Assembly (NCBI GenBank): GCA_046563655.1
Contig: JAJCTO010000010.1
Span: forward strand, 806,001-870,000
Reading direction: 5' to 3'
Origin: Yuukianura sp. NJ FZ-2021
Lineage: Eukaryota
DNA length: 64,000 nucleotides
Below are positions 38,085 to 64,000 of the stretch, in pieces. A program made the translations under genes and the position numbers. Under the pieces are notes generated by a model. The model ran no database searches. It saw only the letters and a program-made list of their open reading frames with translations, and was not told where the DNA came from. Numbering within the stretch: the stretch's first letter is position 1; every line of letters begins with the position of its first letter.

Positions 38085-39437
38085 ATGCCAAAGGTAAAGA
38101 CTACAAAAGGATATGGAGGAACAGGGGTTGGACCAATTTCTCCATATACATTTGTCAGATCGGAAACAAATTTGTTTGAAGAACCAGCTTTTGACGTTAG
38201 TCTCTTGTCTACAATTCAATCAGAGTACCATTCAATTACTTCCTTGGCTGACTCCATGGCACCCATTGAATTTTATATTCAAGGGAATGACACACAATTT
38301 TCAGACTTGTCAGAGACAAAACTTTATCTAAAAACTCGAATTGTTGCTGAAAATGGAAGTGCTTTGGGTGAAGAGGATCTTGTTGCTCCTGTAAACAATT
38401 TTCTTCACTCACTCTTTCAACAACTAAGTGTACATCTCAATGAAAGTCTCATTACACCATCATCTAATCAATATGCGTATCGAAGCTACCTTGAAACACT
38501 ACTTGGTTATAATAAAGAGTTTAAAAAGTCTCAAGCTCAAGGAGCACTATACTACAAGGATAAGGATCCTTCCAACAAAAGTACAACTACTGAAGACGGG
38601 TACAAGACTCGCTTTGATTTGACAAAAAATAGCAAAAGCATAGAACTGATTGGACGTCCATTTGGAGATATTTTTTCTCAAAACAAGTTTTTGATTCCTG
38701 GAATTGATGTACGTGTTAGCTTCCTTCGATCTTCTCCTACATTTTGTTTAATTAGTAATACCCCAACTGGAAAATATCAAGTTCAAATTTCGGACGCAAG
38801 ACTTTTGATTCAAAAGCATACCCTACTACCTTCTCTGGTTACTTCAATTTTTAAAGAATGGGAACTTGGACGACCAATCACATATCCTCTACGACGAGTG
38901 GAAATTAAAACTTATACAATTGGACCTGGTAGTGTTCAATTTATAAACGAGAATTTATTAAGCGGTCTCTTGCCAGATAGAATCATCATTGGACTTTTAC
39001 AATCAGAAGACTACATGGGAACTAGAACTTCTAATCCATACAACTTTTCTCACTTTGACCTAAATCATCTCAATGTTACAGTCAATGGAGAACAAAGTTC
39101 TTGTCTACCTCTTCATTTGGATTGGGACGGAGACCAATACATTCAACTCTACAACAATCTTTTTTACGGACTTGGAATGTCAAACGAAAATGTTGGAATT
39201 GATATGACGCGAGCCGAGTATAAAAATCAACCCCTCATGATTTATAACTTACGTCATACCAGAGAAGGATTTGCTCCGCCACGACATGGAAACGTCAAAA
39301 TTGAATTAAAATTTAAAAAAGCTCTAGCAAAGGCCATAACTGTCCTAGTATATGCTGAATATCAAGCAGTACTCTACATTGACTCGAGCAAGAACGTCTT
39401 TTGGAAAGACTACAGTAGTACGAGTAGTAGCAACTAG
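38085..39437 (+). CDS. Polinton major capsid protein, intact (450 aa)
   Basis: PIEFYI, DLSETKLYL, PVNNFLHSLF, YAYRSYLETLL, LPDRIIIG, NPYNFSHF, VYAEY. Confidence 0.93.
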   Translation: MPKVKTTKGYGGTGVGPISPYTFVRSETNLFEEPAFDVSLLSTIQSEYHSITSLADSMAPIEFYIQGNDTQFSDLSETKLYLKTRIVAENGSALGEEDLVAPVNNFLHSLFQQLSVHLNESLITPSSNQYAYRSYLETLLGYNKEFKKSQAQGALYYKDKDPSNKSTTTEDGYKTRFDLTKNSKSIELIGRPFGDIFSQNKFLIPGIDVRVSFLRSSPTFCLISNTPTGKYQVQISDARLLIQKHTLLPSLVTSIFKEWELGRPITYPLRRVEIKTYTIGPGSVQFINENLLSGLLPDRIIIGLLQSEDYMGTRTSNPYNFSHFDLNHLNVTVNGEQSSCLPLHLDWDGDQYIQLYNNLFYGLGMSNENVGIDMTRAEYKNQPLMIYNLRHTREGFAPPRHGNVKIELKFKKALAKAITVLVYAEYQAVLYIDSSKNVFWKDYSSTSSSN

Positions 39438-39448
39438 GAAGAGTCCAA

Positions 39449-39479
<31 letters not shown>

Positions 39480-39513
39480 TCTCGCGTGGAAGAGTTTAAC
39501 TGGAACCACCAGA

Positions 39514-40053
39514 AATGGAGACGAGTCAAATTTTAAATACCTTTCATGCTTTTTGAAAAGTAACTCGGCCACCTTCCACGTCCTTCCTTGTGATTATTTG
39601 ACTCTTCTTACAGTTTCACGTTATCCTCTATGCCTTGTTGTAAATTCGGATCCGTCCACTTCTCCTGGAAGTCATTGGATGGCTCTATTTCGGGAACATT
39701 CCAGAGCATCTCTCAAGTTTATCGATTCATATGGAATGGGGATTGACTTTTATGACAAATCCTTCACAAACTTTGCTAATCGACTTGGAGCTCCAATTGT
39801 AGAAAATGTAAAAACACTCCAAAGCCACAACTCTCAAGTTTGCGGTGAATTCGCAATCTACTTTTTGTATAAACCCTACAATTCTTGTTGTCTCATGAGC
39901 ATCTACTGTAACTTCAATTCAAATTTAAAACAAAATGATAGGTTAGTTAAGCAATTTGTAAGAAAACGACTAAAAAATAGAAATACAAAATTTTTCTCAT
40001 CCTCCTCCTCCTCTTTGTCAGCTACAATTGAGCAATGTTGTACTCCATTTTAA
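39514..40053 (+). pseudogene. Adenain-like protease; probable 1-nt frameshift near the start
   Basis: GSHWMALF, FIDSYG, LQSHNSQVCGEF. The ATG at 39514 (METSQI) matches MNTEEI of the other copy but is out of frame with the catalytic body. Confidence 0.8.
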
Positions 40054-40473: not shown

Positions 40474-41686
40474 TTACTCATCTGATCTGATGCCATTGTT
40501 AGTACCAAAATAAGTACAAATGTTGACTTGACGAGAGACAAACGGAAACTGCTGCTCGAAACCAACTCCATTCCACCTCATATCAGTCCTTACAGCAACA
40601 AAAACCTCACTTGTCCTATCTATTTCTACGTCTCTCCTCCTCCTCCCACATCTCACAACTAACAGACTCCACCTCTTTCAGTGTTAAATTTGACCAACTG
40701 TTGTTCCAACAGACAGAAGCCCTGCCTCATTTCTGGCTACTCCATCTTGGTCTGTCTACCTGAAAACGTTTTTTACGACTAACATAAAAACTAAAGACTA
40801 GACGTACGCAATTCTTACGGCGACAGCATGTCAAATTCACACATAAATAAAAGATTTTCTTTTTATTGTTTTTTCTTTAGCAGTCAATCGTTTCTGGCGG
40901 CGCTGAAGGTTCGCGGTCGTAAAGTTGTTCCTTTTCTTCTTCTTCTTCTTCTCCTTCCGGTGCGTGATGTTTTCCATTTTTGTCAATTTCACGGTGGTAT
41001 GAACTCACCTCATCCTCAGCTGAATACACATTGTGCCGGATGGGCTGTATGACCTGTGACCTCTACTGTGGATGCTGGATGAGATGCTGGATGAGATGGA
41101 AGGAGAGAGAAGACCGACAAGACAAGTGAAGCCAATGAGAGCTTTATTCAGACTGAGTGAATGAATGGAATGAATGTATGTGCAGTAGCCTATACTTTGC
41201 CTATGAGGGGTGAGATGGGTGCTGTGTATGGGGTGTGCTACACATTGGGGGGCTGAAAAAGGGGGTCCTCCGGGGGGGGGGGGTATGTCCAAAATCCGGG
41301 GGATGGTCCAAGGAAAGTCCAAGAAAATCCAATGTACAGGGCCAGTCATCATCTAATCAGGAACGAGAGCACCATCCGGTGTCGGTTTTGTTTAATTACG
41401 ACGTTGTCGTCTCCTCTGATTTTCTTCCCATTGTTCGCTCTTTTTGGATTTGGCAAGAAAATATTCGGGATATTCCTCCATCACTCTGCGTTTTCTAATG
41501 TGCATATTTCTCATGAAGTTGGAGTCTTTCTTCAAATAGAGTTGGCGGTTTCAACAGTGACTCCTGGCGTGATTTGGTCGAAAGCAGATGAAGCAATATG
41601 GCGGAAGTTTCGAGTTTGGTGGAGAAATGGCAGACTTAGATGTTGGAAGAACTGATTTACGACGCTTCGAGATTACGACAACACGA

Positions 41687-43211
41687 TTAGTCGAAGCGAT
41701 ACACAATTTCTTCAATTTCACATTCGACTTCCATTTCTGGTTCCTCTAATTCCGTCTGAGTTTCGATAGACTTATGTGATAATGTGATTTTGGGAGCTGG
41801 AGGAGGTTTACGTGGGGTTGATGTAGATGGAGTTGGTTCCAGAAATGTTGAAATGTTGTCGTCATCATCAGAAATTGTCAGTAGATCAAGCTCTTCTAGA
41901 GCGGTAAGTTCTTTGAAAGATCGTTTGACTGTTTGTTGTGGAACGGAAGTGATTTCTTCGTCGTCTGAGACGATGTCAACCAAAGTTGGAGCGGGTTCGG
42001 GACGAGGGGTGACTTTGATAAATTTCTTCGGCTTAGGGACTATAATTTGAAGAATATCTTGACAGAAGTGTTTCGCAAAGAAGTAGGAATTGCTTGGCAT
42101 GAAACTTAGGAGATTTTTCTCAGACTTAATCTTTTCTTTGTTGAGGCAGATAGTCATGAGTCTTGAAGTTTCAGCGATCAAAGTTGGAGGTAAATCAAGT
42201 TTTTGTGCAATTTCATTTCTTTTTTGAAACAATCTGGAAAAGTGTTGTCGTTCTTCAGAGGAGCCATTGAACTTTTTGATTGTTTCTTCAAAATTTTCCA
42301 GTTTTGGAAGATGAAAAGCGGGCAAAATCTGATTTGATCTTGTGCATGATGTGACTTCCGTACAACTTCTTGAGTTGGTTCCAAATTTTTAAGACAATGT
42401 GGGAATCAGTTCTGGCATATTCAATTTGTTCTGCCGTCAAAGGCCTTTGAGTCCAGTTGGATGTTTGATAGTGAGTTTTGTCCGGTAGTTAAATGTCAGG
42501 GAAGTAATGAGTTGCAATTTCAGTAAGAGATGCTTGCTTCTTGATGACTTTAGATTGTGGTTGTCCTTCTGCCTGATCTTTCCAACTTAAAAGTTCAATT
42601 TGGTAATTGCCAGTTAGATTGTAGTGAGCCTTCTGAACATCAACTACTGGAAACGGGAAGATCTCGAAATAAAGATGAAATTTTGCTAAGTCTTGTTGTG
42701 GTGAATGTGTAATCTTCAGAATTTCCGTTTCTTCTAGGACAGATTTCAGTTCAGAGATGTGTTTGGCGAAGAGAAAAGGGCAAAGAACATAATCCTGACG
42801 ATTTGTAGAAAATTGGAGTAGAGCTGGGTAGGAGGAGCCGAAGTATGAATTGTCTGCCTTGAATTTAGTGCCGATTTTTGTTCCAGAAAACTCCATGTCA
42901 ACCGAAAATGCATCTTGACCTTCTAGGTCGCTTCTCATCATATTGAACTCCTCTAGAGTGGAAATTAATTTGACTGGAGTAGAGCTGCGCGTGTCAGACG
43001 TGCTATCACATTCTCGGAGTTCCGTTCGACGAGGACAAAGAGCGAATCGCTTTCCAGCTTCGTAGTATGGATGAATTTTTGTCCGATTCAATTTTTTGTT
43101 TCGATTGAGAACGGTTTCATGATACTCTCGGAAGTAGTAACTTTGCATCGACCGGATCCTTCTGGAAATGCTCAGTTTCCTTCTAACATTTTGATCTCGA
43201 TTGGAATTCAT
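41687..43211 (-). pseudogene. RNase D/RRP6-like DEDDy 3'-5' exonuclease plus probable HRDC domain (one stop, one frameshift)
   Basis: ExoI SVDMEF; LLQFST; ExoII HSPQQDL. Past the TAA at 42489-42491 the frame reads YQTSNWTQRPLTAEQIEYARTDSHIVLKIWNQL (ExoIII). The next frame gives FSRLFQKRNEIAQKLDLPPTLIA (HRDC-like). Confidence 0.85.
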
Positions 43212-46200
43212 CTGTAATCAACAAAATTGAGGATTTTAGTAATTTTTTCTGATCTTTGATGTTCAATTCCACCTCTAGTGGTTCACATGCATCGTAATAC
43301 TCTTGAAAGTCAAAGAGATTCTCGTATTTGTCTTCAAATTTGACAACTAACGCTTTGTTTTTAAAACCCGCTAAAGTACGGCAATTTATGCGAGACTTTT
43401 GTCGAAGATTTCTTTGATTGCCGATTTCTGATTGTAAGTCATTTGAATTTACTGTAGGACTTTTGTCTGAGGTACTGGGCTCATCTAGAGCATTAATATT
43501 TGTCTGTTGTCGTGAAACGTAATGTTTAATTTGAGAAACATGTCTCTTTCCAATACTTTGTTTGTCAACTGTCTGTAAAATGTCAAATGTCACATTAGAA
43601 AGTCGTTCTCCCAATTCATATGGGCCTTGCCATCTAGGCGCTAATTTTTCCATAAAACCAGACTCTTTGTCAGATTGAACATGGGATTTAATTAAGACTG
43701 AATCTCCTTTTTTGAAATTGTCTTGTATCCGACTTTTGTCGTACTGTATTTTATTTTTCTCATGAGCTTTGTGAATATTTTCTCTTACAAATTGAACTAA
43801 TTCCTGTACCAATCTTGGTGTCTGTTTGAGTTCTTCAGAACTAAGTTCTGGCTCTTCCAGAGCTAAATTTCTGTCGAATGGTAATTGGATTTCTCTCCCG
43901 AGATTTAATAAGGCTGGTGACACTTTTGTAGTCTCGTTCATCACAGTTCTGAGTGCTAAGGCGAACTTTTGAATATTTTCTTCCCATTTATGGTGACTCG
44001 ATTCCAAGTACGCTTGAAGCATTGCTTTGATATTTCGATTTGTTCTTTCGGAATGATTAGCCTGAGCATGATACGGACTGATGAATTTGTGTTGAATATT
44101 CCATTCAGAGCACAAGTTTTTGAGAATGTTTGAATCGAAGTATGTAGCATTGTCAGAAAGAATTCTCTTCGGAGTGCCATACCGGCAAAATATTTGATTT
44201 TCTAAAATGTCCGCAACTTTTTTCGCTGTGATTTCTGTCACAGGAAATAATTCAATCCATTTGGAAAGTTCGTCTAGAACGACAAGTAAATGTTTACTTT
44301 GTTTTCCTCCAGCACTCGTCGGCAGGGGTCCAATGAAGTCAAAATGAATTGTAGAAAATACAGCCTTTGCTGGCTCTGCTAATTGCAGTAAACCGAATGG
44401 TTTATGATTGTTTGCTTTGGATCTTTGACAACGATCACATGATTTGACATAAGTTGCGATTTCTTTGTTCATATTGTTCCAATAACATCTTTGTTTGATT
44501 CTTTCGAGGGTTTTGGTTCTACCCAAGTGTCCCGCTTCTGGGGCATCATGAAAGATTTGTAGGATCCTTTGAGTTATTTGCTTTGGAATAACTGGAACAT
44601 AATAATCTTCTAGATTTTTTGCTTGTAGCTTGGTAGTTTTTTGACCTTCTAAGTCTAAATTTTCAGCTGAAGTGTCTGTTCGTGCCGCGGTTTTCAAATG
44701 ATTGCAATCTGGTCGTAGACAGAGGGGGATGTGACAAGCAGAGTTGCGCTTCTCTGTTGTATTGGTAAGTTTTGGATCCATGCCTGGATTCGTAGTCATG
44801 CCCTTGAAGGGTTTAATTTTGATGAATAGGGTGTTTCTATCCATTTTGTAACTCTTCAAGCACCTTGGCCGAGGTACTGAAGAATTCTGAAGTTGGTCAA
44901 TTATCTTGGAAAGATTTTCATCCTTCCGTTGCTCCTGGGCGATTTCATCTATTGTCGGAGTACAATAGACTAAAAGAAAACTCGGTAAATAGAGTGTTTC
45001 CCGGTCTTGGAACATATCGGGGTCGTCTGGACCTTCTGGGACACTAGCACGTGATAACGCGTCCGCCACCACGTTTTCGCATCCTTTGCGAAATCTGAGT
45101 TTCGCGTTCCACGATAAAATTTCCATTGCCCACTGCGTGAGTTTTGCTTTCTTGTTCTTCATACCTTTAAGGTATCGGACCGCTCGATTATCGGTTTCTA
45201 TGATGAAGGGATGATCTTCTATGAATTCGCGGAGTTTGTCGTATGAGAAAATAATAGCATAAAGCTCTTTTTCATAGATGTGTGCGCTTCTTTCCGACTG
45301 TTTCAAAGTCTTACTCACGAACATGATTGGTCTTTCTTTCCCTTCGTGTTCTTGGACAAGGGCTGCGCCTAAGCCAGTAGTTGAGGCGTCACATTGCATA
45401 ATCAGGGGTTTTGAGTAGTCAAGAGTTGTTAAAGTGACTGTATCGGTAATCGCGTCCTTAAGTAGTTGGAAGGACTCTTGTTGAGGGACATCCCACTTCC
45501 ATTTCTTTCCTTTTCTGAGAAGTGTGTATAAATTTTCTGCTTTGATACTGTAGTTTTTGATGAAGCTGGAATACCAGCCACACATCCCAAGGAATCGGTA
45601 GAGTTCTTTCTTGTTAGATGGAGGTGGGTAGTTGGAAATTGCGTCTTGTTTGCTGGGTTGTTTCTGAATTCCGTTTTGAGAAGCAATATGTCCTAGATAT
45701 GGAACTTCATTTTTTGCAAAAATTGATTTTTCTCTCCCAATTGTAAGATTTGCTTCACGTAGTCTCTCTAAGACGAGTTCGAGGTGTTTCATATGTTCCT
45801 CTAAGTTTTTGGAGTAGATTAGGATATCGTCCATGAAAACTTTGACAAATTGGTCCACGTAACCGTGTAGGACGTTCCTCATGACTGCTTGAAAAGTCTT
45901 TGGGCTGTTTTTAAGTCCCATGGGCATCACTAAAAATTCGTAATGTCCATCTTGTGTAATAAATGCTGTCTTTTCGATGCTGTCTTCGTGCATCGGAATT
46001 TGCCAAAAGCCTCCGTTGAGATCAAGAACTGTGAAGACGTAATTCATTGGTATAGTTCTGAGAATAGAGTTGACGTTGTCTATTGGACCTGCGTTTGTCT
46101 TCATTGTGTCGTTTAGACGAATGTAATTGACACAAAGGCGGTAGGAGCCTGATTTTTTCTTCACCATAACGACTGGAGCAGCATACGGTGAAGTAGAATG

Positions 46201-46890
46201 TCGAATCATTCCTTTTTGAAGTAACTTTTCGATTTCTTGATTCATAATTTCTCTCACATTTGGTGAGTATGAGTAAGGTGCAACAGCAATTGGTCTGCCT
46301 TGAGTTTCGATCTGATGACATCCGAAGCTTGTTCGTCCATAATTTCCATCCGGTCTTGCGACATCAGGGAATTTTTTGAGTACCTCTAGTACTTTTGCCT
46401 CTCTCGGATCTACTTTTTCATTTTCTTGAGGATTTTCAGTTGTAACTGTCAGCGCTACTATTTTTGCATCTCGTTCTGGAGAAAATTTGGTTTTGAATAT
46501 TTCGTTTGGTCTGGACTTGAACCAAAATTGATCTGTAGAAACATCAATGATGATCTGGTACTTGTGCATGACATCACGACCAATGATTAAAGGAAATGGA
46601 AGTGTCTGCATCACAAAAGCTTTGACATGGATGAATGTTCCTCCAAATTTGAGTTGAAGATTGATTTTTCCTAATGGCTTCAATTTTGAATTGTCAGCAA
46701 TGGTAAGTTGAAGTGAACACGGTTCGAAGTGTTTTTGAATTTTGTGAGCCAAATTTTTGTGAATAAGGGTGTAGTCACTGCCGGAATCGAATAACGCGTG
46801 AATTTCTTCTTGAGAATTTAAGGTTGCGCAAAGAGAACTCAATTTGAGAATTGGGAGTAAATAAGATTGCGCTGTCTTATTCTCCCTCAA
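43183..46890 (-). CDS. pol: Gypsy 2 pol (PR-RT-RNase H-integrase), uninterrupted
   Basis: LFDSGS; YRLCVNY; FMDD; CDAS; HDAPEAGH...CDRC; FDFIGP...SDNA...ERTN; GPY. Confidence 0.97.
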   Translation of the reverse strand: MRENKTAQSYLLPILKLSSLCATLNSQEEIHALFDSGSDYTLIHKNLAHKIQKHFEPCSLQLTIADNSKLKPLGKINLQLKFGGTFIHVKAFVMQTLPFPLIIGRDVMHKYQIIIDVSTDQFWFKSRPNEIFKTKFSPERDAKIVALTVTTENPQENEKVDPREAKVLEVLKKFPDVARPDGNYGRTSFGCHQIETQGRPIAVAPYSYSPNVREIMNQEIEKLLQKGMIRHSTSPYAAPVVMVKKKSGSYRLCVNYIRLNDTMKTNAGPIDNVNSILRTIPMNYVFTVLDLNGGFWQIPMHEDSIEKTAFITQDGHYEFLVMPMGLKNSPKTFQAVMRNVLHGYVDQFVKVFMDDILIYSKNLEEHMKHLELVLERLREANLTIGREKSIFAKNEVPYLGHIASQNGIQKQPSKQDAISNYPPPSNKKELYRFLGMCGWYSSFIKNYSIKAENLYTLLRKGKKWKWDVPQQESFQLLKDAITDTVTLTTLDYSKPLIMQCDASTTGLGAALVQEHEGKERPIMFVSKTLKQSERSAHIYEKELYAIIFSYDKLREFIEDHPFIIETDNRAVRYLKGMKNKKAKLTQWAMEILSWNAKLRFRKGCENVVADALSRASVPEGPDDPDMFQDRETLYLPSFLLVYCTPTIDEIAQEQRKDENLSKIIDQLQNSSVPRPRCLKSYKMDRNTLFIKIKPFKGMTTNPGMDPKLTNTTEKRNSACHIPLCLRPDCNHLKTAARTDTSAENLDLEGQKTTKLQAKNLEDYYVPVIPKQITQRILQIFHDAPEAGHLGRTKTLERIKQRCYWNNMNKEIATYVKSCDRCQRSKANNHKPFGLLQLAEPAKAVFSTIHFDFIGPLPTSAGGKQSKHLLVVLDELSKWIELFPVTEITAKKVADILENQIFCRYGTPKRILSDNATYFDSNILKNLCSEWNIQHKFISPYHAQANHSERTNRNIKAMLQAYLESSHHKWEENIQKFALALRTVMNETTKVSPALLNLGREIQLPFDRNLALEEPELSSEELKQTPRLVQELVQFVRENIHKAHEKNKIQYDKSRIQDNFKKGDSVLIKSHVQSDKESGFMEKLAPRWQGPYELGERLSNVTFDILQTVDKQSIGKRHVSQIKHYVSRQQTNINALDEPSTSDKSPTVNSNDLQSEIGNQRNLRQKSRINCRTLAGFKNKALVVKFEDKYENLFDFQEYYDACEPLEVELNIKDQKKLLKSSILLITDEFQSRSKC

Positions 46891-48467
46891 TAGTTTAAAT
46901 TTTGAGATGAGTTGTGCTCCTGTCCCTCTAGGACTTGAAATTCTTTTTGTTCACTTTCTCCAGTGAATAGAACAAGCGGTTTCTTGTTTCCGCATTCATT
47001 AGCCCAATGCCCATAACCTTGGCACTTTGGGCATTTCCCAGGGGGATCATTCTGCGATTTGGAACTCGGTCCTGGCTGTTGATTGTCATTGCTTCTTCCC
47101 TCTTCGGGATTTCGATTTTGGGAATTCCCATATCCTTGGTTTTGATAACCGCGTTTGTAACCTCGACGAAATGGTCTGGAAGAATTGTATCCACGATTGG
47201 AGTACTGACCCACATATCCTTCATCTTGCGATCCGGAATTTTGTCCAAAACGGTAATTTGGATTGTAGTTTCTGCCTTTGTAATTTGGGTTTTGTCCATT
47301 GTTCTGGTAACGTCCGTGTCCTTGTACACGTCGGTAAAATCCTCTAGATCTTCCTCTGCGATTTGAAAACCCTCTAGTTTGAGATTGATTCTCTTCCTGC
47401 GTTTCTTTTTGTTGATTTGTTTCGGAATTGTAAACGACTCTCGAGTCTTGTTGATAATTCTGAGCATTGTTGTATCCTCTGCCGCGGTAATTCTGGTACG
47501 GGCGGGATTGAAATCTCTGCGAAAAGTTTCCTCGCTGATTGTTGGTTGTGTTCTGGAGACTGAGTGCCACAAGTGGAGGTAAAGCGTCATAAATTCTGCG
47601 ACTTTTGTCCTCTGCCGTGAGATTTTCATGTGCAACTCGACAAGCTGCAAACAATTCTTGTGGAGTCTCGAACTCTCTTTCCCCAAGTGGGGTTCTGAGT
47701 CTTGGAAACAATGAAGCTTTGACTCTTTTGATCATTTGTTTTAGTGTTTCATTTGGAAAACACAACTTTGCTAATCGTAGCATTTCATAGATGTACGTCT
47801 CCGTAGGATCTTTAAAATGTTGAACTCTGTTCGTGAAATATTTGATTCGATTTCTCTGTTCATCCTCTCCATCGTAGCGTTCGATGAAAGTTTTCTCAAA
47901 TTCTTCCCAGTCCTTTGTTTCAGAATGGACATGTTGCCACCAAGCGTGACTTTCCTCTGGAAGAACAGTTTTGACTAAATATAGCCATTGTTGAGGTGCG
48001 TGACCTTGCGTAGTGAAGAAACGTTCAACGTCTTTGAGAAATGATTCTGCGGTATGTCGCTTTGGATTAAACTTTGGAAGTGGCAGTTGAGAATTAACTG
48101 CTGTAACACGAACATTTTTGAGAGCTTCAGCCAAGGCTTCCGTCGTAACGAAGCTTGAAGTCGGAGAGGCTGGTGAATGTGAAGTTGAAATTTGTAAGCT
48201 TTTGGGCCGCTGTGATGAAGTTGATTGAATTGGGATTGATCCAATTTGTTGTTGACCCAGTTGTTGTTGATCATTTGTCTGAGCTAATTGTTGCTGTTGA
48301 ACAGCTTTTCTTTGAGCTTCTGCTGTCTGTCTGGTCCTTTCAGCTTCATTAATAGCTGCTGCATATAACTGGGTAAGAGCTGCCATCTGTCGGTCATTGA
48401 ATGGATAATCTGCTTCTTCTTCTTCTTCTTGGTTTGATCTGTCAATCATTTGTTGATCCAAATTCAA
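46887..48467 (-). CDS. gag: Gypsy 2 gag
   Basis: LPKFN...FLKDVERFF...WW...WEEFEKTFIERY capsid-like region; RG-rich region; CPKCQGYGHWANEC knuckle. Confidence 0.9.
   Translation of the reverse strand: MNLDQQMIDRSNQEEEEEADYPFNDRQMAALTQLYAAAINEAERTRQTAEAQRKAVQQQQLAQTNDQQQLGQQQIGSIPIQSTSSQRPKSLQISTSHSPASPTSSFVTTEALAEALKNVRVTAVNSQLPLPKFNPKRHTAESFLKDVERFFTTQGHAPQQWLYLVKTVLPEESHAWWQHVHSETKDWEEFEKTFIERYDGEDEQRNRIKYFTNRVQHFKDPTETYIYEMLRLAKLCFPNETLKQMIKRVKASLFPRLRTPLGEREFETPQELFAACRVAHENLTAEDKSRRIYDALPPLVALSLQNTTNNQRGNFSQRFQSRPYQNYRGRGYNNAQNYQQDSRVVYNSETNQQKETQEENQSQTRGFSNRRGRSRGFYRRVQGHGRYQNNGQNPNYKGRNYNPNYRFGQNSGSQDEGYVGQYSNRGYNSSRPFRRGYKRGYQNQGYGNSQNRNPEEGRSNDNQQPGPSSKSQNDPPGKCPKCQGYGHWANECGNKKPLVLFTGESEQKEFQVLEGQEHNSSQNLNY
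46893..46899 (-). promoter_or_regulatory. Probable -1 frameshift site U_UUA_AAC
   Basis: gag ends aat tta aac tat tga. The -1 frame reads cta ttg agg gag into pol. Confidence 0.75.
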
Positions 48468-50068
48468 ATTCGGCTCGAAATTTTGATTTTCCGGCGTAGA
48501 ATGTGCGGTACTTGCTGAGCTTCCAGCTTCCTCTTACCATTGACCCTCTAGGTCTGACATTGCTGTAGTTGATTTGCGAATTATTCGTCCACTTCGAGTT
48601 TTACTTGGTCCAAATGTTGGAGTTGGAATTTTTGTTTGCGTAGGTTTTTTGCTCATTAAGCACTTTTCAGAATCCTTCTAGGATTTATCGTTATGAAGTT
48701 TGATTTTTAATTTAAAATTGTTCAATTTAACAATTAACTTGTTTTAAAAACTTTAATTTTTAACGAAAATCCAATTTTTTCTTTGCTACACGAAGTTTGT
48801 CAATTGATTTGTAAAATATTTAAATCGTTAACGTGAATTAATTAATTAAAATCTTTACAAATGTGCAAAAGTTCGTTAAAAGTTATTAATTAACAATTTG
48901 TCCCTCTAGGACTGAATTTATTTACTTTACAGTTGAGTCTGAATTAATTTTAAAACAAAACACTCAATGTTTGCACGAAAGTTTGAATTTACAAATTGTT
49001 TTTGTCGAACAGCTGACTTTTGTTTTTGTTTTGATTTGAAATGTCAATTTTTTGCGAAATTGGAATTTGTTTTGTCAATCGGCTGTCTTTTGTTTATGTT
49101 TACATCTCAAATGTCAAATGTCAATTGTCAATTGTCAATTTTTAGTTAGTGCAATTGGAATCTGTATTTCGTATTTTGTTTTGCAGTTTTGCAACTTTTC
49201 AATTGTAATTGTGTAAGTTTTTGACATACGTCAATTTGCTCAATTCTGATTGGCTGTCTTTTACTCTGTGGTGGTATGGTCGGGTGGGAATAGTCTCTTT
49301 CCCCTTCTTCTCGCTTTTTCTTTTTTCCGTTATGGGCGTGGCTTATCAGCAGCCATTTTAGCTTTTTACCAAAAAGACGCTATCTTTTTAGATTTTTTGA
49401 AAAATCGGGCAGCACCCGTGCCCCAATTTACAATTTGCACGAAAAATCGCCTTCCAGGCCTTATGTCGTTGACCCCTGACCTTCTGGTCGCTTGAAGGGG
49501 TGATGCTGTGCTGTGGAGATGGAAAAGGAAGAAAAAGACACGAAAGAGCTCTATCTTCCACTTTATGTTTTTAAAAATTTTTTTACAGTTTTAAGAATTT
49601 TAGCCAATTTTAACTTTTTATCTTGCTAAATTTTTAACTTTTTAACCAATTTGAACGTTAATTAGGCGCTTCCCGTCCTTTACTCCGTTTGATGACGGTT
49701 AATTTTTAAGAAAACGAAAGGAAAATGAAAGGAATAGGCGAATCTCCTTGACTTTTCCACACAATTTCACATTTTTTTTAACGTTTGTTAGTTTTACCGT
49801 TGCTTTTTCCTGATCTTGAGGATTGCAGGGTCGTCTCCTTGACAACAGTTCGACACGTGTGCCGGATGGGCTGTATGACCTGTGACCTCTACTGTGGATG
49901 CTGGATGAGATGCTGGATGAGATGGAAGGAGAGAGAAGACCGACAAGACAAGTGAAGCCAATGAGAGCTTTATTCAGACTGAGTGAATGAATGGAATGAA
50001 TGTATGTGCAGTAGCCTATGCTTAGCCTATGAGGGGTGAGATGGGTGCTGTGTATGGGGTGTGCTACA

Positions 50069-50490
50069 ACATTTATGCGCCTGTCCTTGTCGTACCAATC
50101 TTCTTCATCATCTCGTCCGTACCCAAATTCCACTTCCCCCCACATTTCCGTGTTCCAATGATCTGCCTTCATGCCTCCTACCTCCTTTCCATCCGACATC
50201 GAGCCATCTCTCCCGAAAATTTGATACCTCGCTGCCTGGCCAAATATTCCCCGTTTGCTGCGCCAACCACATGTTTAAAATTTGGCAATTTTTTGGGATT
50301 ACTTCCGCTGATTATGTAGCACTTGATAAGATTTTCAACAATGTACGGAACGTCCGTCATTAAAATGTCTGAACGCCAACCAGCTCTTTTGAACGTGACA
50401 GTCTTGGTCCAACCAATTTGATCCGCAGAGTACCAACACCTCAGTCGCATCTTTTCTTGCTCACTTGTAAAATTTTTCTTTGAGGCCATG
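50069..50490 (-). pseudogene. Polinton C accessory gene split by Gypsy 2 (3' part at about 40877-41031)
   Basis: Joining across the TSD gives DWYDKDRRINVYSAEDEVSSYHREIDKNG... to a stop at about 40877. One frameshift near 50190. Confidence 0.6.
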
Positions 50491-53367: not shown

Positions 53368-53710
53368 TGTAGCGGCCTTGTCCCTTTCCCCCAGTTTCCC
53401 CCCATTCGTCATTGGTTAGTTAGTTAGTTGGGAGGAGTTAGCTTTTCGTTTCTCTGCTGACACAGACTGCGATCTGTGTCGAGCAGTTCAGTTCAGTTAG
53501 TTGAGGCAGTCTTCGTTTTGCTTTCTGCGAGTTAGCATTGTTGGCCAAGAGCCAGGTTGTTTTGTGGAGTCAATAAACTCCACAACCATCACTACGTTCG
53601 TTTGTTGTTTCGTTTATTGTCTTTCGTTTCCTGGAGCTCGGGCCTTCAGCCCCGGAGAGTAGTCTGGTTTTTTGGAGCGTTTTCTGGTGTTCAGTAGCCG
53701 TAGTGCTACA
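53368..53710 (+). mobile_element. 3' LTR (343 bp) with PPT, abutting the 705-bp array
   Basis: Termini tgtagc...gctaca. Purine tract aggcaggaaga upstream. AATAAA at about 53572. Confidence 0.65.
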
Positions 53711-54152
53711 AAACGTTCGTTAAAACCATATTTCAGAAGGTTGGATAAACCATACGTTACTCCGTTTTTATTATGCACCCCTCCAACACCAGAAAAATTA
53801 CAACTGACTCTCAAATCATAATGTGTTTTCAACCGAACCCGCAAATGTACCTGTTTTATTGCGTTCAAACCCACTTTGCAGAAAGTTGGTATCTCGACAA
53901 GTTACCAGCACAATTGCATGCCTGTATTTACTCAACCACAGCAGAAATAGTTTATGCTACAGGATGAGGCGACCCTCATTGATTATGAAATTTAGTGAAA
54001 TATTCAGTTTCAATAAAGCTACTTGGTTTCGGGGGCGTGTGACTGCTCTTGTGGCGTTTGGGAACAGTCCCACTCCCAACCGCCAAGGATAGAGGTGTAT
54101 GGAATGGACAGTGCCTGTTATGGTAGCCTTCCGATTCTATCCTGTGCAGATT

Positions 54153-54227
54153 GTGACTCGATAGCTTAAGGGTTAGAGCTGTCTCCCCGGATTGGAGAAG
54201 GCGTGGGTTCGAATCCCACTCGGTCAC
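54153..54227 (+). ncRNA. tRNA-like Pol III unit in TRIM LTR1
   Basis: Acceptor gtgac(t)cga/tcggtcac; A-box tagcttaaggg; stem tctcc/ggaga with 7-nt loop; T-arm gtggg-ttcgaat-cccac; T6 run downstream. Confidence 0.75.
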
Positions 54228-54440
54228 TTATTTTTTCTGCACTGTCATCGTGTGTCTCTCAAGCAATGTGAGCCCTGATCCCTCACATATGGTGCCGAAA
54301 GCCGGGAAGGCAGTGAGGGGGCTTGAGGGGCGGGTGATGTGGCGTTTGGGAACAGTCCCACTCCCAACCGCCAAGGATAGAGGTGTATGGAATGGACAGT
54401 GCCTGTTATGGTAGCCTTCCGATTCTATCCTGTGCAGATT

Positions 54441-54515
54441 GTGACTCGATAGCTTAAGGGTTAGAGCTGTCTCCCCGGATTGGAGAAGGCGTGGGTTCGA
54501 ATCCCACTCGGTCAC
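54441..54515 (+). ncRNA. tRNA-like Pol III unit in TRIM LTR2
   Basis: Copy of 54153-54227, offset by 288 bp. Confidence 0.75.
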
Positions 54516-57500
54516 TTATTTTTTCTGCACTGTCATCGTGTGTCTCTCAAGCTATGTGAGCCCTGATCCCTCACACTCAAAGTTAACAAAACGAGCTGCA
54601 CTCTGTCTGGATCTTGTACGCGTTCCGGTGTCGATTTGTTGAGATAGCTTTTGTGTAGCAGGTATTCGCCTCAAGGAATTATAAACCACTCTAAAACCCA
54701 ATAGTAACTACCCTGGTTAGAAACCGCGCAATGCCATCACTGACAACAGCTAATGGATATTCAAGAGGAAATAAGTAAAAGTTTGAACGATATTTGAAAC
54801 TACGAAGTCGGTTGCTTGATATAGTTCCAAGTTTGGTAACTTATAAATGGTTTCTTGCAGCAAATTTTGTACGATTTGTATTTCCCAATAGCGTATTAGG
54901 CAAACTTTGAACCCAGGTATTTAAGATCGCCGCTCCGATGCGATGAAACGTTCGTTAAAACCATATTTCAGAAGGTTGGATAAACCGTACGTTACTCCGT
55001 TTTTATTATGCACCCCTCCAACACCAGAAAAATTACAACTGACTCTCAAATCATAATGTGTTTTCAACCGAACCTGCAAATGTACCTGTTTTATTGCGTT
55101 CAAACCCACTTTGCAGAAAGTTGGTATCTCGACAAGTTACCAGCACAATTGCATGCCTGTATTTACTCAACCACAGCAGAAATAGTTTCTGCTACAGGAT
55201 GAGGCGACCCTCATTGATTATGAAATTTAGTGAAATATTCAGTTTCAATAAAGCTACTTGGTTTCGGGGGCGTGTGACTGCTCTAAGTTAACAAAACGAG
55301 CTGCACTCTGTCTGGATCTTGTACGCGTTCCGGTGTCGATTTGTTGAGATAGCTTTTGTGTAGCAGGTATTCGCCTCAAGGAATTATAAACCACTCTAAA
55401 ACCCAATAGTAACTAGCCTGGTTAGAAACCGCGCAATGCCATCACTGACAACAGCTAATGGATATTCAAGAGGAAATAAGTAAAAGTTTGAACGATATTT
55501 GAAACTACGAAGTCGGTTGCTTGATATAGTTCCAAGTTTGGTAACTTATAAATGGTTTCTTGCAGCAAATTTTGTACGATTTGTATTTCCCAATAGCGTA
55601 TTAGGCAAACTTTGAACCCAGGTATTTAAGATCGCCGCTCCGATGCGATGAAACGTTCGTTAAAACCATATTTCAGAAGGTTGGATAAACCGTACGTTAC
55701 TCCGTTTTTATTATGCACCCCTCCAACACCAGAAAAATTACAACTGACTCTCAAATCATAATGTGTTTTCAACCGAACCTGCAAATGTACCTGTTTTATT
55801 GCGTTCAAACCCACTTTGCAGAAAGTTGGTATCTCGACAAGTTACCAGCACAATTGCATGCCTGTATTTACTCAACCACAGCAGAAATAGTTTATGCTAC
55901 AGGATGAGGCGACCCTCATTGATTATGAAATTTAGTGAAATATTCAGTTTCAATAAAGCTACTTGGTTTCGGGGGCGTGTGACTGCTCTAAGTTAACAAA
56001 ACGAGCTGCACTCTGTCTGGATCTTGTACGCGTTCCGGTGTCGATTTGTTGAGATAGCTTTTGTGTAGCAGGTATTCGCCTCAAGGAATTATAAACCACT
56101 CTAAAACCCAATAGTAACTAGCCTGGTTAGAAACCGCGCAATGCCATCACTGACAACAGCTAATGGATATTCAAGAGGAAATAAGTAAAAGTTTGAACGA
56201 TATTTGAAACTACGAGGTCGGTTGCTTGATATAGTTCCAAGTTTGGTAACTTATAAATGGTTTCTTGCAGCAAATTTTGTACGATTTGTATTTCCCAATA
56301 GCGTATTAGGCAAACTTTGAACCCAGGTATTTAAGATCGCCGCTCCGATGCGATGAAACGTTCGTTAAAACCATATTTCAGAAGGTTGGATAAACCATAC
56401 GTTACTCCGTTTTTATTATGCACCCCGCCAACACCAGAAAAATTACAACTGACTCTCAAATCATAATGTGTTTTCAACCGAACCCGCAAATGTACCTGTT
56501 TTATTGCGTTCAAACCCACTTTGCAGAAAGTTGGTATCTCGACAAGTTACCAGCACAATTGCATGCCTGTATTTACTCAACCACAGCAGAAATAGTTTAT
56601 GCTACAGGATGAGGCGACCCTCATTGATTATGAAATTTAGTGAAATATTCAGTTTCAATAAAGCTACTTGGTTTCGGGGGCGTGTGACTGCTCTAAGTTA
56701 ACAAAACGAGCTGCACTCTGTCTGGATCTTGTACGCGTTCCGGTGTCGATTTGTTGAGATGGCTTTTGTGTAGCAGGTATTCGCCTCAAGGAATTATAAA
56801 CCACTCTAAAACCCAATAGTAACTAGCCTGGTTAGAAACCGCGCAATGCCATCACTGACAACAGCTAATGGATATTCAAGAGGAAATAAGTAAAAGTTTG
56901 AACGATATTTGAAACTACGAAGTCGGTTGCTTGATATAGTTCCAAGTTTGGTAACTTATAAATGGTTTCTTGCAGCAAATTTTGTACGATTTGTATTTCC
57001 CAATAGCGTATTAGGCAAACTTTGAACCCAGGTATTTAAGATCGCCGCTCCGATGCGATGAAACGTTCGTTAAAACCATATTTCAGAAGGTTGGATAAAC
57101 CATACGTTACTCCGTTTTTATTATGCACCCCTCCAACACCAGAAAAATTACAACTGACTCTCAAATCATAATGTGTTTTCAACCGAACCCGCAAATGTAC
57201 CTGTTTTATTGCGTTCAAACCCACTTTGCAGAAAGTTGGTATCTCGACAAGTTACCAGCACAATTGCATGCCTGTATTTACTCAACCACAGCAGAAATAG
57301 TTTATGCTACAGGATGAGGCGACCCTCATTGATTATGAAATTTAGTGAAATATTCAGTTTCAATAAAGCTACTTGGTTTCGGGGGCGTGTGACTGCTCTA
57401 AGTTAACAAAACGAGCTGCACTCTGTCTGGATCTTGTACGCGTTCCGGTGTCGATTTGTTGAGATGGCTTTTGTGTAGCAGGTATTCGCCTCAAGGAATT

Positions 57501-60500
57501 ATAAACCACTCTAAAACCCAATAGTAACTAGCCTGGTTAGAAACCGCGCAATGCCATCACTGACAACAGCTAATGGATATTCAAGAGGAAATAAGTAAAA
57601 GTTTGAACGATATTTGAAACTACGAAGTCGGTTGCTTGATATAGTTCCAAGTTTGGTAACTTATAAATGGTTTCTTGCAGCAAATTTTGTACGATTTGTA
57701 TTTCCCAATAGCGTATTAGGCAAACTTTGAACCCAGGTATTTAAGATCGCCGCTCCGATGCGATGAAACGTTCGTTAAAACCATATTTCAGAAGGTTGGA
57801 TAAACCGTACGTTACTCCGTTTTTATTATGCACCCCTCCAACACCAGAAAAATTACAACTGACTCTCAAATCATAATGTGTTTTCAACCGAACCTGCAAA
57901 TGTACCTGTTTTATTGCGTTCAAACCCACTTTGCAGAAAGTTGGTATCTCGACAAGTTACCAGCACAATTGCATGCCTGTATTTACTCAACCACAGCAGA
58001 AATAGTTTATGCTACAGGATGAGGCGACCCTCATTGATTATGAAATTTAGTGAAATATTCAGTTTCAATAAAGCTACTTGGTTTCGGGGGCGTGTGACTG
58101 CTCTAAGTTAACAAAACGAGCTGCACTCTGTCTGGATCTTGTACGCGTTCCGGTGTCGATTTGTTGAGATGGCTTTTGTGTAGCAGGTATTCGCCTCAAG
58201 GAATTATAAACCACTCTAAAACCCAATAGTAACTAGCCTGGTTAGAAACCGCGCAATGCCATCACTGACAACAGCTAATGGATATTCAAGAGGAAATAAG
58301 TAAAAGTTTGAACGATATTTGAAACTACGAAGTCGGTTGCTTGATATAGTTCCAAGTTTGGTAACTTATAAATGGTTTCTTGCAGCAAATTTTGTACGAT
58401 TTGTATTTCCCAATAGCGTATTAGGCAAACTTTGAACCCAGGTATTTAAGATCGCCGCTCCGATGCGATGAAACGTTCGTTAAAACCATATTTCAGAAGG
58501 TTGGATAAACCGTACGTTACTCCGTTTTTATTATGCACCCCTCCAACACCAGAAAAATTACAACTGACTCTCAAATCATAATGTGTTTTCAACCGAACCT
58601 GCAAATGTACCTGTTTTATTGCGTTCAAACCCACTTTGCAGAAAGTTGGTATCTCGACAAGTTACCAGCACAATTGCATGCCTGTATTTACTCAACCACA
58701 GCAGAAATAGTTTATGCTACAGGATGAGGCGACCCTCATTGATTATGAAATTTAGTGAAATATTCAGTTTCAATAAAGCTACTTGGTTTCGGGGGCGTGT
58801 GACTGCTCTAAGTTAACAAAACGAGCTGCACTCTGTCTGGATCTTGTACGCGTTCCGGTGTCGATTTGTTGAGATAGCTTTTGTGTAGCAGGTATTCGCC
58901 TCAAGGAATTATAAACCACTCTAAAACCCAATAGTAACTAGCCTGGTTAGAAACCGCGCAATGCCATCACTGACAACAGCTAATGGATATTCAAGAGGAA
59001 ATAAGTAAAAGTTTGAACGATATTTGAAACTACGAAGTCGGTTGCTTGATATAGTTCCAAGTTTGGTAACTTATAAATGGTTTCTTGCAGCAAATTTTGT
59101 ACGATTTGTATTTCCCAATAGCGTATTAGGCAAACTTTGAACCCAGGTATTTAAGATCGCCGCTCCGATGCGATGAAACGTTCGTTAAAACCATATTTCA
59201 GAAGGTTGGATAAACCGTACGTTACTCCGTTTTTATTATGCACCCCTCCAACACCAGAAAAATTACAACTGACTCTCAAATCATAATGTGTTTTCAACCG
59301 AACCTGCAAATGTACCTGTTTTATTGCGTTCAAACCCACTTTGCAGAAAGTTGGTATCTCGACAAGTTACCAGCACAATTGCATGCCTGTATTTACTCAA
59401 CCACAGCAGAAATAGTTTATGCTACAGGATGAGGCGACCCTCATTGATTATGAAATTTAGTGAAATATTCAGTTTCAATAAAGCTACTTGGTTTCGGGGG
59501 CGTGTGACTGCTCTAAGTTAACAAAACGAGCTGCACTCTGTCTGGATCTTGTACGCGTTCCGGTGTCGATTTGTTGAGATGGCTTTTGTGTAGCAGGTAT
59601 TCGCCTCAAGGAATTATAAACCACTCTAAAACCCAATAGTAACTAGCCTGGTTAGAAACCGCGCAATGCCATCACTGACAACAGCTAATGGATATTCAAG
59701 AGGAAATAAGTAAAAGTTTGAACGATATTTGAAACTACGAAGTCGGTTGCTTGATATAGTTCCAAGTTTGGTAACTTATAAATGGTTTCTTGCAGCAAAT
59801 TTTGTACGATTTGTATTTCCCAATAGCGTATTAGGCAAACTTTGAACCCAGGTATTTAAGATCGCCGCTCCGATGCGATGAAACGTTCGTTAAAACCATA
59901 TTTCAGAAGGTTGGATAAACCGTACGTTACTCCGTTTTTATTATGCACCCCTCCAACACCAGAAAAATTACAACTGACTCTCAAATCATAATGTGTTTTC
60001 AACCGAACCTGCAAATGTACCTGTTTTATTGCGTTCAAACCCACTTTGCAGAAAGTTGGTATCTCGACAAGTTACCAGCACAATTGCATGCCTGTATTTA
60101 CTCAACCACAGCAGAAATAGTTTATGCTACAGGATGAGGCGACCCTCATTGATTATGAAATTTAGTGAAATATTCAGTTTCAATAAAGCTACTTGGTTTC
60201 GGGGGCGTGTGACTGCTCTAAGTTAACAAAACGAGCTGCACTCTGTCTGGATCTTGTACGCGTTCCGGTGTCGATTTGTTGAGATGGCTTTTGTGTAGCA
60301 GGTATTCGCCTCAAGGAATTATAAACCACTCTAAAACCCAATAGTAACTAGCCTGGTTAGAAACCGCGCAATGCCATCACTGACAACAGCTAATGGATAT
60401 TCAAGAGGAAATAAGTAAAAGTTTGAACGATATTTGAAACTACGAAGTCGGTTGCTTGATATAGTTCCAAGTTTGGTAACTTATAAATGGTTTCTTGCAG

Positions 60501-63500
60501 CAAATTTTGTACGATTTGTATTTCCCAATAGCGTATTAGGCAAACTTTGAACCCAGGTATTTAAGATCGCCGCTCCGATGCGATGAAACGTTCGTTAAAA
60601 CCATATTTCAGAAGGTTGGATAAACCGTACGTTACTCCGTTTTTATTATGCACCCCTCCAACACCAGAAAAATTACAACTGACTCTCAAATCATAATGTG
60701 TTTTCAACCGAACCTGCAAATGTACCTGTTTTATTGCGTTCAAACCCACTTTGCAGAAAGTTGGTATCTCGACAAGTTACCAGCACAATTGCATGCCTGT
60801 ATTTACTCAACCACAGCAGAAATAGTTTATGCTACAGGATGAGGCGACCCTCATTGATTATGAAATTTAGTGAAATATTCAGTTTCAATAAAGCTACTTG
60901 GTTTCGGGGGCGTGTGACTGCTCTAAGTTAACAAAACGAGCTGCACTCTGTCTGGATCTTGTACGCGTTCCGGTGTCGATTTGTTGAGATAGCTTTTGTG
61001 TAGCAGGTATTCGCCTCAAGGAATTATAAACCACTCTAAAACCCAATAGTAACTAGCCTGGTTAGAAACCGCGCAATGCCATCACTGACAACAGCTAATG
61101 GATATTCAAGAGGAAATAAGTAAAAGTTTGAACGATATTTGAAACTACGAAGTCGGTTGCTTGATATAGTTCCAAGTTTGGTAACTTATAAATGGTTTCT
61201 TGCAGCAAATTTTGTACGATTTGTATTTCCCAATAGCGTATTAGGCAAACTTTGAACCCAGGTATTTAAGATCGCCGCTCCGATGCGATGAAACGTTCGT
61301 TAAAACCATATTTCAGAAGGTTGGATAAACCGTACGTTACTCCGTTTTTATTATGCACCCCTCCAACACCAGAAAAATTACAACTGACTCTCAAATCATA
61401 ATGTGTTTTCAACCGAACCTGCAAATGTACCTGTTTTATTGCGTTCAAACCCACTTTGCAGAAAGTTGGTATCTCGACAAGTTACCAGCACAATTGCATG
61501 CCTGTATTTACTCAACCACAGCAGAAATAGTTTATGCTACAGGATGAGGCGACCCTCATTGATTATGAAATTTAGTGAAATATTCAGTTTCAATAAAGCT
61601 ACTTGGTTTCGGGGGCGTGTGACTGCTCTAAGTTAACAAAACGAGCTGCACTCTGTCTGGATCTTGTACGCGTTCCGGTGTCGATTTGTTGAGATGGCTT
61701 TTGTGTAGCAGGTATTCGCCTCAAGGAATTATAAACCACTCTAAAACCCAATAGTAACTAGCCTGGTTAGAAACCGCGCAATGCCATCACTGACAACAGC
61801 TAATGGATATTCAAGAGGAAATAAGTAAAAGTTTGAACGATATTTGAAACTACGAAGTCGGTTGCTTGATATAGTTCCAAGTTTGGTAACTTATAAATGG
61901 TTTCTTGCAGCAAATTTTGTACGATTTGTATTTCCCAATAGCGTATTAGGCAAACTTTGAACCCAGGTATTTAAGATCGCCGCTCCGATGCGATGAAACG
62001 TTCGTTAAAACCATATTTCAGAAGGTTGGATAAACCGTACGTTACTCCGTTTTTATTATGCACCCCTCCAACACCAGAAAAATTACAACTGACTCTCAAA
62101 TCATAATGTGTTTTCAACCGAACCTGCAAATGTACCTGTTTTATTGCGTTCAAACCCACTTTGCAGAAAGTTGGTATCTCGACAAGTTACCAGCACAATT
62201 GCATGCCTGTATTTACTCAACCACAGCAGAAATAGTTTATGCTACAGGATGAGGCGACCCTCATTGATTATGAAATTTAGTGAAATATTCAGTTTCAATA
62301 AAGCTACTTGGTTTCGGGGGCGTGTGACTGCTCTAAGTTAACAAAACGAGCTGCACTCTGTCTGGATCTTGTACGCGTTCCGGTGTCGATTTGTTGAGAT
62401 GGCTTTTGTGTAGCAGGTATTCGCCTCAAGGAATTATAAACCACTCTAAAACCCAATAGTAACTAGCCTGGTTAGAAACCGCGCAATGCCATCACTGACA
62501 ACAGCTAATGGATATTCAAGAGGAAATAAGTAAAAGTTTGAACGATATTTGAAACTACGAAGTCGGTTGCTTGATATAGTTCCAAGTTTGGTAACTTATA
62601 AATGGTTTCTTGCAGCAAATTTTGTACGATTTGTATTTCCCAATAGCGTATTAGGCAAACTTTGAACCCAGGTATTTAAGATCGCCGCTCCGATGCGATG
62701 AAACGTTCGTTAAAACCATATTTCAGAAGGTTGGATAAACCGTACGTTACTCCGTTTTTATTATGCACCCCTCCAACACCAGAAAAATTACAACTGACTC
62801 TCAAATCATAATGTGTTTTCAACCGAACCTGCAAATGTACCTGTTTTATTGCGTTCAAACCCACTTTGCAGAAAGTTGGTATCTCGACAAGTTACCAGCA
62901 CAATTGCATGCCTGTATTTACTCAACCACAGCAGAAATAGTTTATGCTACAGGATGAGGCGACCCTCATTGATTATGAAATTTAGTGAAATATTCAGTTT
63001 CAATAAAGCTACTTGGTTTCGGGGGCGTGTGACTGCTCTAAGTTAACAAAACGAGCTGCACTCTGTCTGGATCTTGTACGCGTTCCGGTGTCGATTTGTT
63101 GAGATGGCTTTTGTGTAGCAGGTATTCGCCTCAAGGAATTATAAACCACTCTAAAACCCAATAGTAACTAGCCTGGTTAGAAACCGCGCAATGCCATCAC
63201 TGACAACAGCTAATGGATATTCAAGAGGAAATAAGTAAAAGTTTGAACGATATTTGAAACTACGAAGTCGGTTGCTTGATATAGTTCCAAGTTTGGTAAC
63301 TTATAAATGGTTTCTTGCAGCAAATTTTGTACGATTTGTATTTCCCAATAGCGTATTAGGCAAACTTTGAACCCAGGTATTTAAGATCGCCGCTCCGATG
63401 CGATGAAACGTTCGTTAAAACCATATTTCAGAAGGTTGGATAAACCGTACGTTACTCCGTTTTTATTATGCACCCCTCCAACACCAGAAAAATTACAACT

Positions 63501-64000
63501 GACTCTCAAATCATAATGTGTTTTCAACCGAACCTGCAAATGTACCTGTTTTATTGCGTTCAAACCCACTTTGCAGAAAGTTGGTATCTCGACAAGTTAC
63601 CAGCACAATTGCATGCCTGTATTTACTCAACCACAGCAGAAATAGTTTATGCTACAGGATGAGGCGACCCTCATTGATTATGAAATTTAGTGAAATATTC
63701 AGTTTCAATAAAGCTACTTGGTTTCGGGGGCGTGTGACTGCTCTAAGTTAACAAAACGAGCTGCACTCTGTCTGGATCTTGTACGCGTTCCGGTGTCGAT
63801 TTGTTGAGATGGCTTTTGTGTAGCAGGTATTCGCCTCAAGGAATTATAAACCACTCTAAAACCCAATAGTAACTAGCCTGGTTAGAAACCGCGCAATGCC
63901 ATCACTGACAACAGCTAATGGATATTCAAGAGGAAATAAGTAAAAGTTTGAACGATATTTGAAACTACGAAGTCGGTTGCTTGATATAGTTCCAAGTTTG

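Follow-up and report, generated by a model that had tools for sequence, protein, structure and literature searches.

A 526-bp stretch of the genome of Yuukianura sp. NJ FZ-2021 is very probably a young, structurally intact, non-autonomous retrotransposon with long terminal repeats (LTRs), of the Helenus type, that is, a terminal-repeat retrotransposon in miniature (TRIM) of the TRIMp3 group with a tRNA-derived unit in each LTR. It lies in a stretch of 64,000 nucleotides that was analyzed as a whole (GenBank assembly GCA_046563655.1, contig JAJCTO010000010.1, positions 806,001 to 870,000 of the forward strand; hereafter the window), in whose own numbering all positions are given (Table 1). The two LTRs are offset by 288 nt and identical at 237 of 238 positions, the sole difference being A at 54265 versus T at 54553. 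Together with the 50 nt between them they make up an element of 238 + 50 + 238 bp, inside the published TRIM range of 311–1263 bp. [quoted passage not shown] The PBS was assigned to the tRNA-Phe type because of its agreement with Drosophila and human tRNA-Phe(GAA) capture oligonucleotides, which, as printed in two papers, are complementary to the tRNA 3′ end including CCA: in a comparison by eye 17 of the first 18 bases were equal, 11 of them contiguous from the CCA end. The junction of the polypurine tract (PPT) with the LTR (54337 to 54050) was found in all four public sequencing runs mapped. The element contains no overlapping ATG open reading frame (ORF) longer than 42 aa and no TATA, AATAAA or ATTAAA motif, and further copies were not found in the window, where only chance matches of up to 29 nt were observed.

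The element interrupts an array of a 705-bp satellite composed of at least 14 units, 98–99% identical, which continues past the end of the window. The empty site, ...GACTG CTCT AAGTT..., was found in 13 of the 13 sister units examined, and the filled unit reads ...GACTG CTCT [526 bp] CTCA AAGTT..., a gain of 526 + 4 bp. The right copy of the target-site duplication (TSD) has A at 54579, where the left copy and all 13 empty sites have T, one change within 4 bp next to LTRs with 1 difference in 238; this A may be a later mutation or the result of imprecise repair at integration.

Both LTRs carry a tRNA-like unit. ARAGORN called only two tRNAs in the 64 kb, one per LTR, and the Rfam tRNA model (RF00005) matched both units over its full length with 39.0 bits versus a gathering score of 29 (E 2.6e-06). 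The Rfam alignment shows complete pairing in the D, anticodon and T stems and one acceptor position (54158) that is partnerless. The anticodon loop CCGGATT has C at position 33, not U33, and T at position 37, and the variable region comprises 4–5 nt. The GGTTC of box B is kept, no variant being present there in the four public runs, and apart from the two T6 runs the element has no stretch of four or more T. The free energy of the unit alone was a weak signal (z −1.78, 10 of 200 shuffles being as good), and its minimum-energy fold has a different D arm. Complementarity between the unit and the PBS region of its own element was limited to a longest stretch of just 5 nt. The unit is a tRNA derivative, a promoter or structure module, and not a working tRNA.

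Much of this anatomy had been proposed in an initial annotation made from the DNA letters. Its 238-bp LTRs and 50-bp core with a tRNA-Phe-like PBS and a PPT were confirmed, as were a cloverleaf-like unit per LTR with A box, B box and T6 run, box A proving only partly canonical, and an anticodon loop without U33; the tRNA-model comparison that it suggested gave an Rfam match above the gathering score for both units. Of the 4-bp TSD that it had deduced from empty sites, the length stood and so did the empty sites, in 13 of 13 units, whereas the duplication itself is not perfect (CTCT/CTCA).

TRIMs whose LTRs contain sequences derived from tRNA have been named Helenus and grouped with Cassandra and Ajax as TRIMp3 (Kojima 2024, Biology 13:119, PMC10886601; the statements drawn on here come from parts of the article and its supplement). 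According to these, Helenus duplications are of 5 bp in fungi and plants and of 4 bp in animals, and the PBS regions of animal Helenus are shared with Gypsy elements alone; Gypsy helpers are presumed. Most Helenus units were judged non-functional as tRNAs, with none complementary to its own PBS. Box A has TRGCY and YGG in most families and the GGTTC of box B is conserved; use of RNA polymerase III (Pol III) is expected and stated as not validated. The element described here resembles Helenus as presented in PMC10886601 in having a tRNA-derived unit per LTR, PBS and PPT as its sole internal content and a length within the published range. It also resembles them in having a unit that is not a plausible working tRNA and lacks complementarity to its own PBS, and its 4-bp TSD is that of all animal families with a stated TSD length in Table S1. 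By contrast, its PBS is of the tRNA-Phe type, whereas the text of PMC10886601 names Lys, Leu, Trp, Arg, His, Ile, Pro, Glu and Ser as primers of animal Helenus, Phe being absent. Unlike in the published Helenus families, the T-run is T6.

Table S1 of PMC10886601 contains no family with the dimensions 238/50/526. Motifs from the LTR start, the anticodon region, the T arm plus acceptor and the Phe-type PBS gave 0 matches in its DataS1 consensus file (control, 48) in what was a motif search, not an alignment, in which motifs across line breaks would be missed. In the literature searches made, Helenus elements were described in one paper, a bioinformatic one (Kojima 2024); among the sources listed by a search on Helenus, none besides it seemed, from title and opening of the abstract, to describe new animal families. 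Because no consensus motif matched, the dimensions are absent from Table S1 and tRNA-Phe is not among the primers, we call the element, on the strength of the motif search and Table S1, a putative new family of a known kind, Helenus. The initial annotation had viewed it as a tRNA-based analogue of Cassandra, i.e. a miniature LTR element with a tRNA-derived unit per LTR, and the anatomy supports this; the novelty thereby implied was not borne out, the kind being in print as Helenus or TRIMp3 (PMC10886601).

Among the published families, the LTR-11_DR group of fish Helenus is built alike, with a very short internal region of 43–48 nt versus 50 nt here, and, in a comparison by eye and not by alignment, with PPT halves that share an AGTGAGG block, a G run and GGTGA before the LTR. 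It differs in its PBS, which is of the tRNA-His type according to PMC10886601, in its LTR ends and bodies, and in its consensus sequences, which as given there lack a T-run after the tRNA-like part. Cassandra of plants and Ajax of nemerteans are likewise described in part of the same source as TRIMs that carry in both LTRs a Pol III promoter derived from a small RNA, accompanied in Cassandra by a terminator, but their module derives from 5S rRNA and their TSD is of 5 bp. In the interval 53500–55100 the Rfam search, up to an E of 1, gave no match to 5S rRNA. Retrozymes are similar in being non-autonomous LTR elements with a structured small-RNA module per LTR, which in their case is a hammerhead ribozyme; no ribozyme family was among the six Rfam matches obtained at E up to 1. 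With tRNA-derived short interspersed nuclear elements (SINEs, class SINE2) the element shares a tRNA-like head with boxes A and B. Unlike SINEs, it has LTRs, PBS and PPT, and its unit ends in T6, without a SINE body or tail. SINEs lack LTR, PBS and PPT and are copied by the machinery of long interspersed nuclear elements via their 3′ tail.

The element was further investigated in public sequencing runs. The stretch or part of it was present in seven of nine runs, with at least half of the sampled words in six; the runs containing it came from four studies and carried two coded organism labels, two of them being metatranscriptomes. A query of 53900–54337 (left flank, 5′ LTR and core) was mapped on contigs of four runs. 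The stretch was matched by 82 contigs in run X1 and 40 in run X3, distributed over identity classes of at least 99%, 95–99%, 90–95% and below 90% as 13, 17, 31 and 21 in X1 and as 5, 8, 15 and 12 in X3, and this spread indicates that many diverged copies exist. In X1, a contig without any difference over 54080–54243 (U3, the whole tRNA-like unit and the T-run) had a depth of 994.8, and one running over U5, PBS and PPT back into the LTR start a depth of 462.9; contig depth is not copy number, and the ratio of 2.15 between the tRNA-bearing LTR core and the internal region is that expected from two unit-bearing LTRs per core. Values in X3 were noisier (LTR-core depths of 61.9 and 92.7 versus an internal depth of 37.1), and in X4 the LTR and core depths were 19.6 and 8.8. 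Forms skipping 54075–54202 or 54078–54159 were present in X1 only, with depths of 32.6 and 15.7, i.e. 3.3% and 1.6% of that of the core. Nearly all of the many diverged copies carry the tRNA-like unit. The possibility, raised at the outset, that most family members lack this segment contrasts with the depths in X1 (994.8 versus 32.6 and 15.7).

At 54265, T was the majority letter in all four runs (1819.5 of 1841.9 in X1), so that the A of the 5′ LTR is a private change that followed insertion. A second copy with flanks of its own was not seen among the contigs of the four runs, and a scan of metagenome contigs with a 22-mer from the T arm and acceptor gave 0 matches. The flanking satellite had zero contig depth in all four runs, though the element was covered; such a hole proves nothing.

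The alternatives to this identification were weighed against these data. Tandem Repeats Finder reports a period of 288 with 1.8 copies, in line with a local tandem duplication within the satellite (288 bp × 1.8) in place of a retroelement. Such an origin is practically negligible given the TG..CA ends with PBS and PPT placed exactly at the inner borders of the LTRs, the clean 526 + 4 bp insertion relative to 13 of 13 empty sister units, and the presence of the element in runs where the depth of the flanking satellite is zero. It is also very improbable that a SINE or tRNA pseudogene landed once in the LTR of a single TRIM copy whose family lacks the unit. The two low-depth X1 forms that skip part of the unit could be read in that sense; their depths are the small fractions of core depth given above. 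The unit is present in both LTRs of the copy and therefore went through reverse transcription. In X1 the depth of the tRNA-bearing core contig exceeds that of the internal region by a factor of 2.15, and the same pattern was observed under the second organism label (X3) and in two metatranscriptomes. A functional tRNA gene has U33, a purine at 37, an intact acceptor stem and an isotype matching its anticodon, and cytosolic tRNA-Ser has a long extra arm. Although both ARAGORN and Rfam call a tRNA, the C at 33, the T at 37, the missing acceptor pair, the variable region of 4–5 nt in place of the long extra arm and the modest 39-bit score leave hardly any likelihood that the element spreads functional tRNA-Ser(GGA) genes in the form of its LTR units. 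The same disagreement of isotype was found in most Helenus units by Kojima 2024, in the part of PMC10886601 that deals with them.

In the life cycle proposed for this Helenus-type element, tRNA-Phe would prime minus-strand synthesis at 54290 and the PPT would prime the plus strand, and the element would obtain all its proteins, reverse transcriptase and integrase among them, from an autonomous Ty3/Gypsy-type helper that copies it in trans. By analogy with what PMC10886601 proposes for animal Helenus, a Gypsy-type integrase would make the 4-bp duplication. The tRNA-like unit may serve as an internal Pol III promoter, with a start at the unit of the 5′ LTR, and a fraction of the transcripts might pass the T6 of that LTR and terminate at the T6 of the 3′ LTR. 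The resulting RNA would measure about 370 nt and have the tRNA-like unit as R at both of its ends; the boundaries in this model would be approximately 54050–54152 for U3, 54153–54236 for R and 54237–54287 for U5. The fold of a hypothetical 372-nt RNA (z −3.68) was considered as support and discarded, since it is inflated by the two self-complementary repeats.

Several observations weigh against the identification and the transcription model just outlined. The TSD has its one mismatch. Box A is only partly canonical, its TAGCT fitting TRGCY while the later YGG reads AGG or GGG, and a variant subfamily has TAGCA instead of TAGCT. The RNA libraries containing the element, X4 and X7, are represented by metatranscriptome contigs, which may contain DNA and give neither strand nor ends, and X4 does not differ from the DNA runs in its LTR-to-core depth ratio. 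In many animals Pol III stops strongly at T6, so that the majority of its transcripts would be about 85 nt long. That other T runs are absent carries no significance, since 60% of shuffles of the 204-nt stretch between the units are also without a run of at least four T. The helper was not found in the 64-kb window, where the two Gypsy elements have other LTR ends and no Phe-type PBS.

Some of these points fit a different origin of the genomic RNA in the same TRIM, namely by RNA polymerase II (Pol II) or by read-through from the flanks, the unit giving a short Pol III RNA, a boundary bound by transcription factor IIIC (TFIIIC), or an RNase P/RNase Z site. With T6 directly behind the unit, most Pol III transcripts should stop there; box A, besides being imperfect, differs between subfamilies; and an X4 contig continues past T6 into PBS, PPT and the following LTR, which is what read-through RNA of any kind, or DNA, would do. 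On the other side, the LTR lacks TATA and a poly(A) signal, a weak argument, and conservation and repetition across related families are highest in box B and the T-run, as expected for a Pol III cassette. In addition, Cassandra, the sole validated case, is described in the relevant part of PMC10886601 as transcribed from its 5S promoter. Taken with these counterpoints, a Pol II or read-through origin is possible but rather doubtful.

Conservation of the fold was assessed on an X4 contig covering 54070–54231 with 17 differences in 162 nt and two gaps, which was mapped by hand on the Rfam alignment. In this variant the D-stem pair 54166/54177 goes from U-A to A-U, and acceptor changes at 54156 and 54159 yield G-U pairs, 54158 being the partnerless position; the T arm and box B (54203–54226) are unchanged, and the remaining changes are in loops. 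Many contigs match at 54200–54244 alone, with an upstream consensus agreement of 0.74–0.89. Examined by eye, their upstream consensus has GGGTTAGAG, a stem that keeps pairing with different letters, and the loop CCGGAT, and their downstream consensus resembles the U5 of the element, including a TCTCTCAA block. These contig consensuses, read by eye and not by formal covariation, point to several related LTR families with one common tRNA-like cassette. The segment with box B and the T-run (54200–54244) had the highest depth, up to 4561 in X1 and up to 4.6-fold that of the LTR core (X1, X3). The first ~60 nt and the last ~45 nt of the LTR were also over-represented in X1 and X3, and these over-represented parts seem to be common to other repeat families, possibly including the helper. 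A farther-reaching reading, which we regard as unlikely, is that the tRNA-like unit and T-run form an exchangeable cassette among several TRIM families, in which the folded unit would set both ends of the genomic RNA and selection would keep the cloverleaf and the CCGGAT loop. Pol III initiation and termination, or cleavage by RNase P and RNase Z, would then define these ends.

Table 1. Positions of the element, its parts and its host satellite in the window
Feature	Position	Strand	Remarks
Host 705-bp satellite array	53711..64000	.	Element after first, partial (335-bp) unit
Left target-site duplication CTCT	54046..54049	+	Single CTCT there in 13/13 empty sister units
5′ LTR, 238 bp, TG..CA	54050..54287	+	Direct repeat of 3′ LTR
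tRNA-like unit 1	54153..54228	+	ARAGORN tRNA-Ser(gga); Rfam tRNA 39.0 bits
Box A-like TAGCTTAAGGG	54162-54172	+	Unit 1; recurs 288 nt on
Anticodon loop CCGGATT	54187-54193	+	Unit 1; recurs 288 nt on
Box B GGTTCGAATCC, canonical	54206-54216 and 54494-54504	+	Units 1 and 2
T6 run, Pol III terminator-like, 3 nt behind unit 1	54231..54236	+	Run of at least T4
PBS, tRNA-Phe type, TGGTGCCGAAAGCCGGGA, 2 nt (TA) past 5′ LTR	54290..54307	+	Match to tRNA-Phe(GAA) capture oligonucleotides
Polypurine-rich tract adjoining 3′ LTR	54308..54337	+	Last 28 nt 75% purine, with G runs
3′ LTR, 238 bp, TG..CA	54338..54575	+	Direct repeat of 5′ LTR
tRNA-like unit 2	54441..54516	+	ARAGORN tRNA-Ser(gga); Rfam tRNA 39.0 bits
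T6 run of 3′ LTR; putative 3′ end of Pol III genomic RNA	54519..54524	+	Run of at least T4; role inferred
Right target-site duplication CTCA	54576..54579	+	One mismatch to CTCT

Other repeats are present in the window. A second satellite at 29290–34838 has a period of 402 bp and 13.8 copies with 95% matches. An intact-looking Ty3/Gypsy element at 41032–50073 (minus strand), with LTRs of ~215 bp that are 98.6% identical, contains a gag-like ORF of 526 aa and an ORF of 1235 aa with protease, reverse transcriptase, RNase H and integrase domains, and differs from the TRIM in its LTR ends and in the sequence after the LTR. A second Ty3/Gypsy element at 9134–19897 (minus strand) has LTRs of ~620 bp, 96% identical, a 1630-aa pol ORF and, on the plus strand, a strong GC skew (+0.24 to +0.30). 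At 4484–6898 lies a BEL/Pao-type gag ORF on the minus strand (DUF1759, E 4.9e-17), beside an ORF with RNase H and a zf-RVT match below the Pfam cut-off (23.5 versus 27.5 bits), as in non-LTR retrotransposons. The interval 38085–40053 holds a 450-aa ORF without a Pfam match, whose nearest Atlas clusters (score 0.98, with a recognition value below the guide line) are animal proteins of mixed phyla, some with a DJR-like capsid domain; an ORF overlapping next to it has a weak adenovirus-protease match (E 0.0034, below the cut-off). This ORF pair provides a lead towards a possible Polinton/Maverick fragment. Taken together, the BEL/Pao-type gag, the Ty3/Gypsy elements and the Polinton-like capsid are indicative of an animal host.

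Beyond the Pol III question and the counting of tRNA genes, this is an ordinary selfish element. Automatic tRNA finders would count such LTRs as tRNA-Ser genes, which is relevant to tRNA gene censuses. The element offers clean material for testing Pol III use by Helenus, being of 526 bp, with LTRs one base apart and 13 adjacent empty sites. Its T6 immediately after the promoter module brings into focus how a Pol III terminator within the 5′ LTR can be passed. Were the idea of an exchangeable, end-defining cassette true, a read-through transcript could be trimmed into a retrotransposition-competent RNA with a tRNA mimic as its terminal repeat, and the family would add tRNA-Phe to the primers of Helenus and perhaps a new host lineage.

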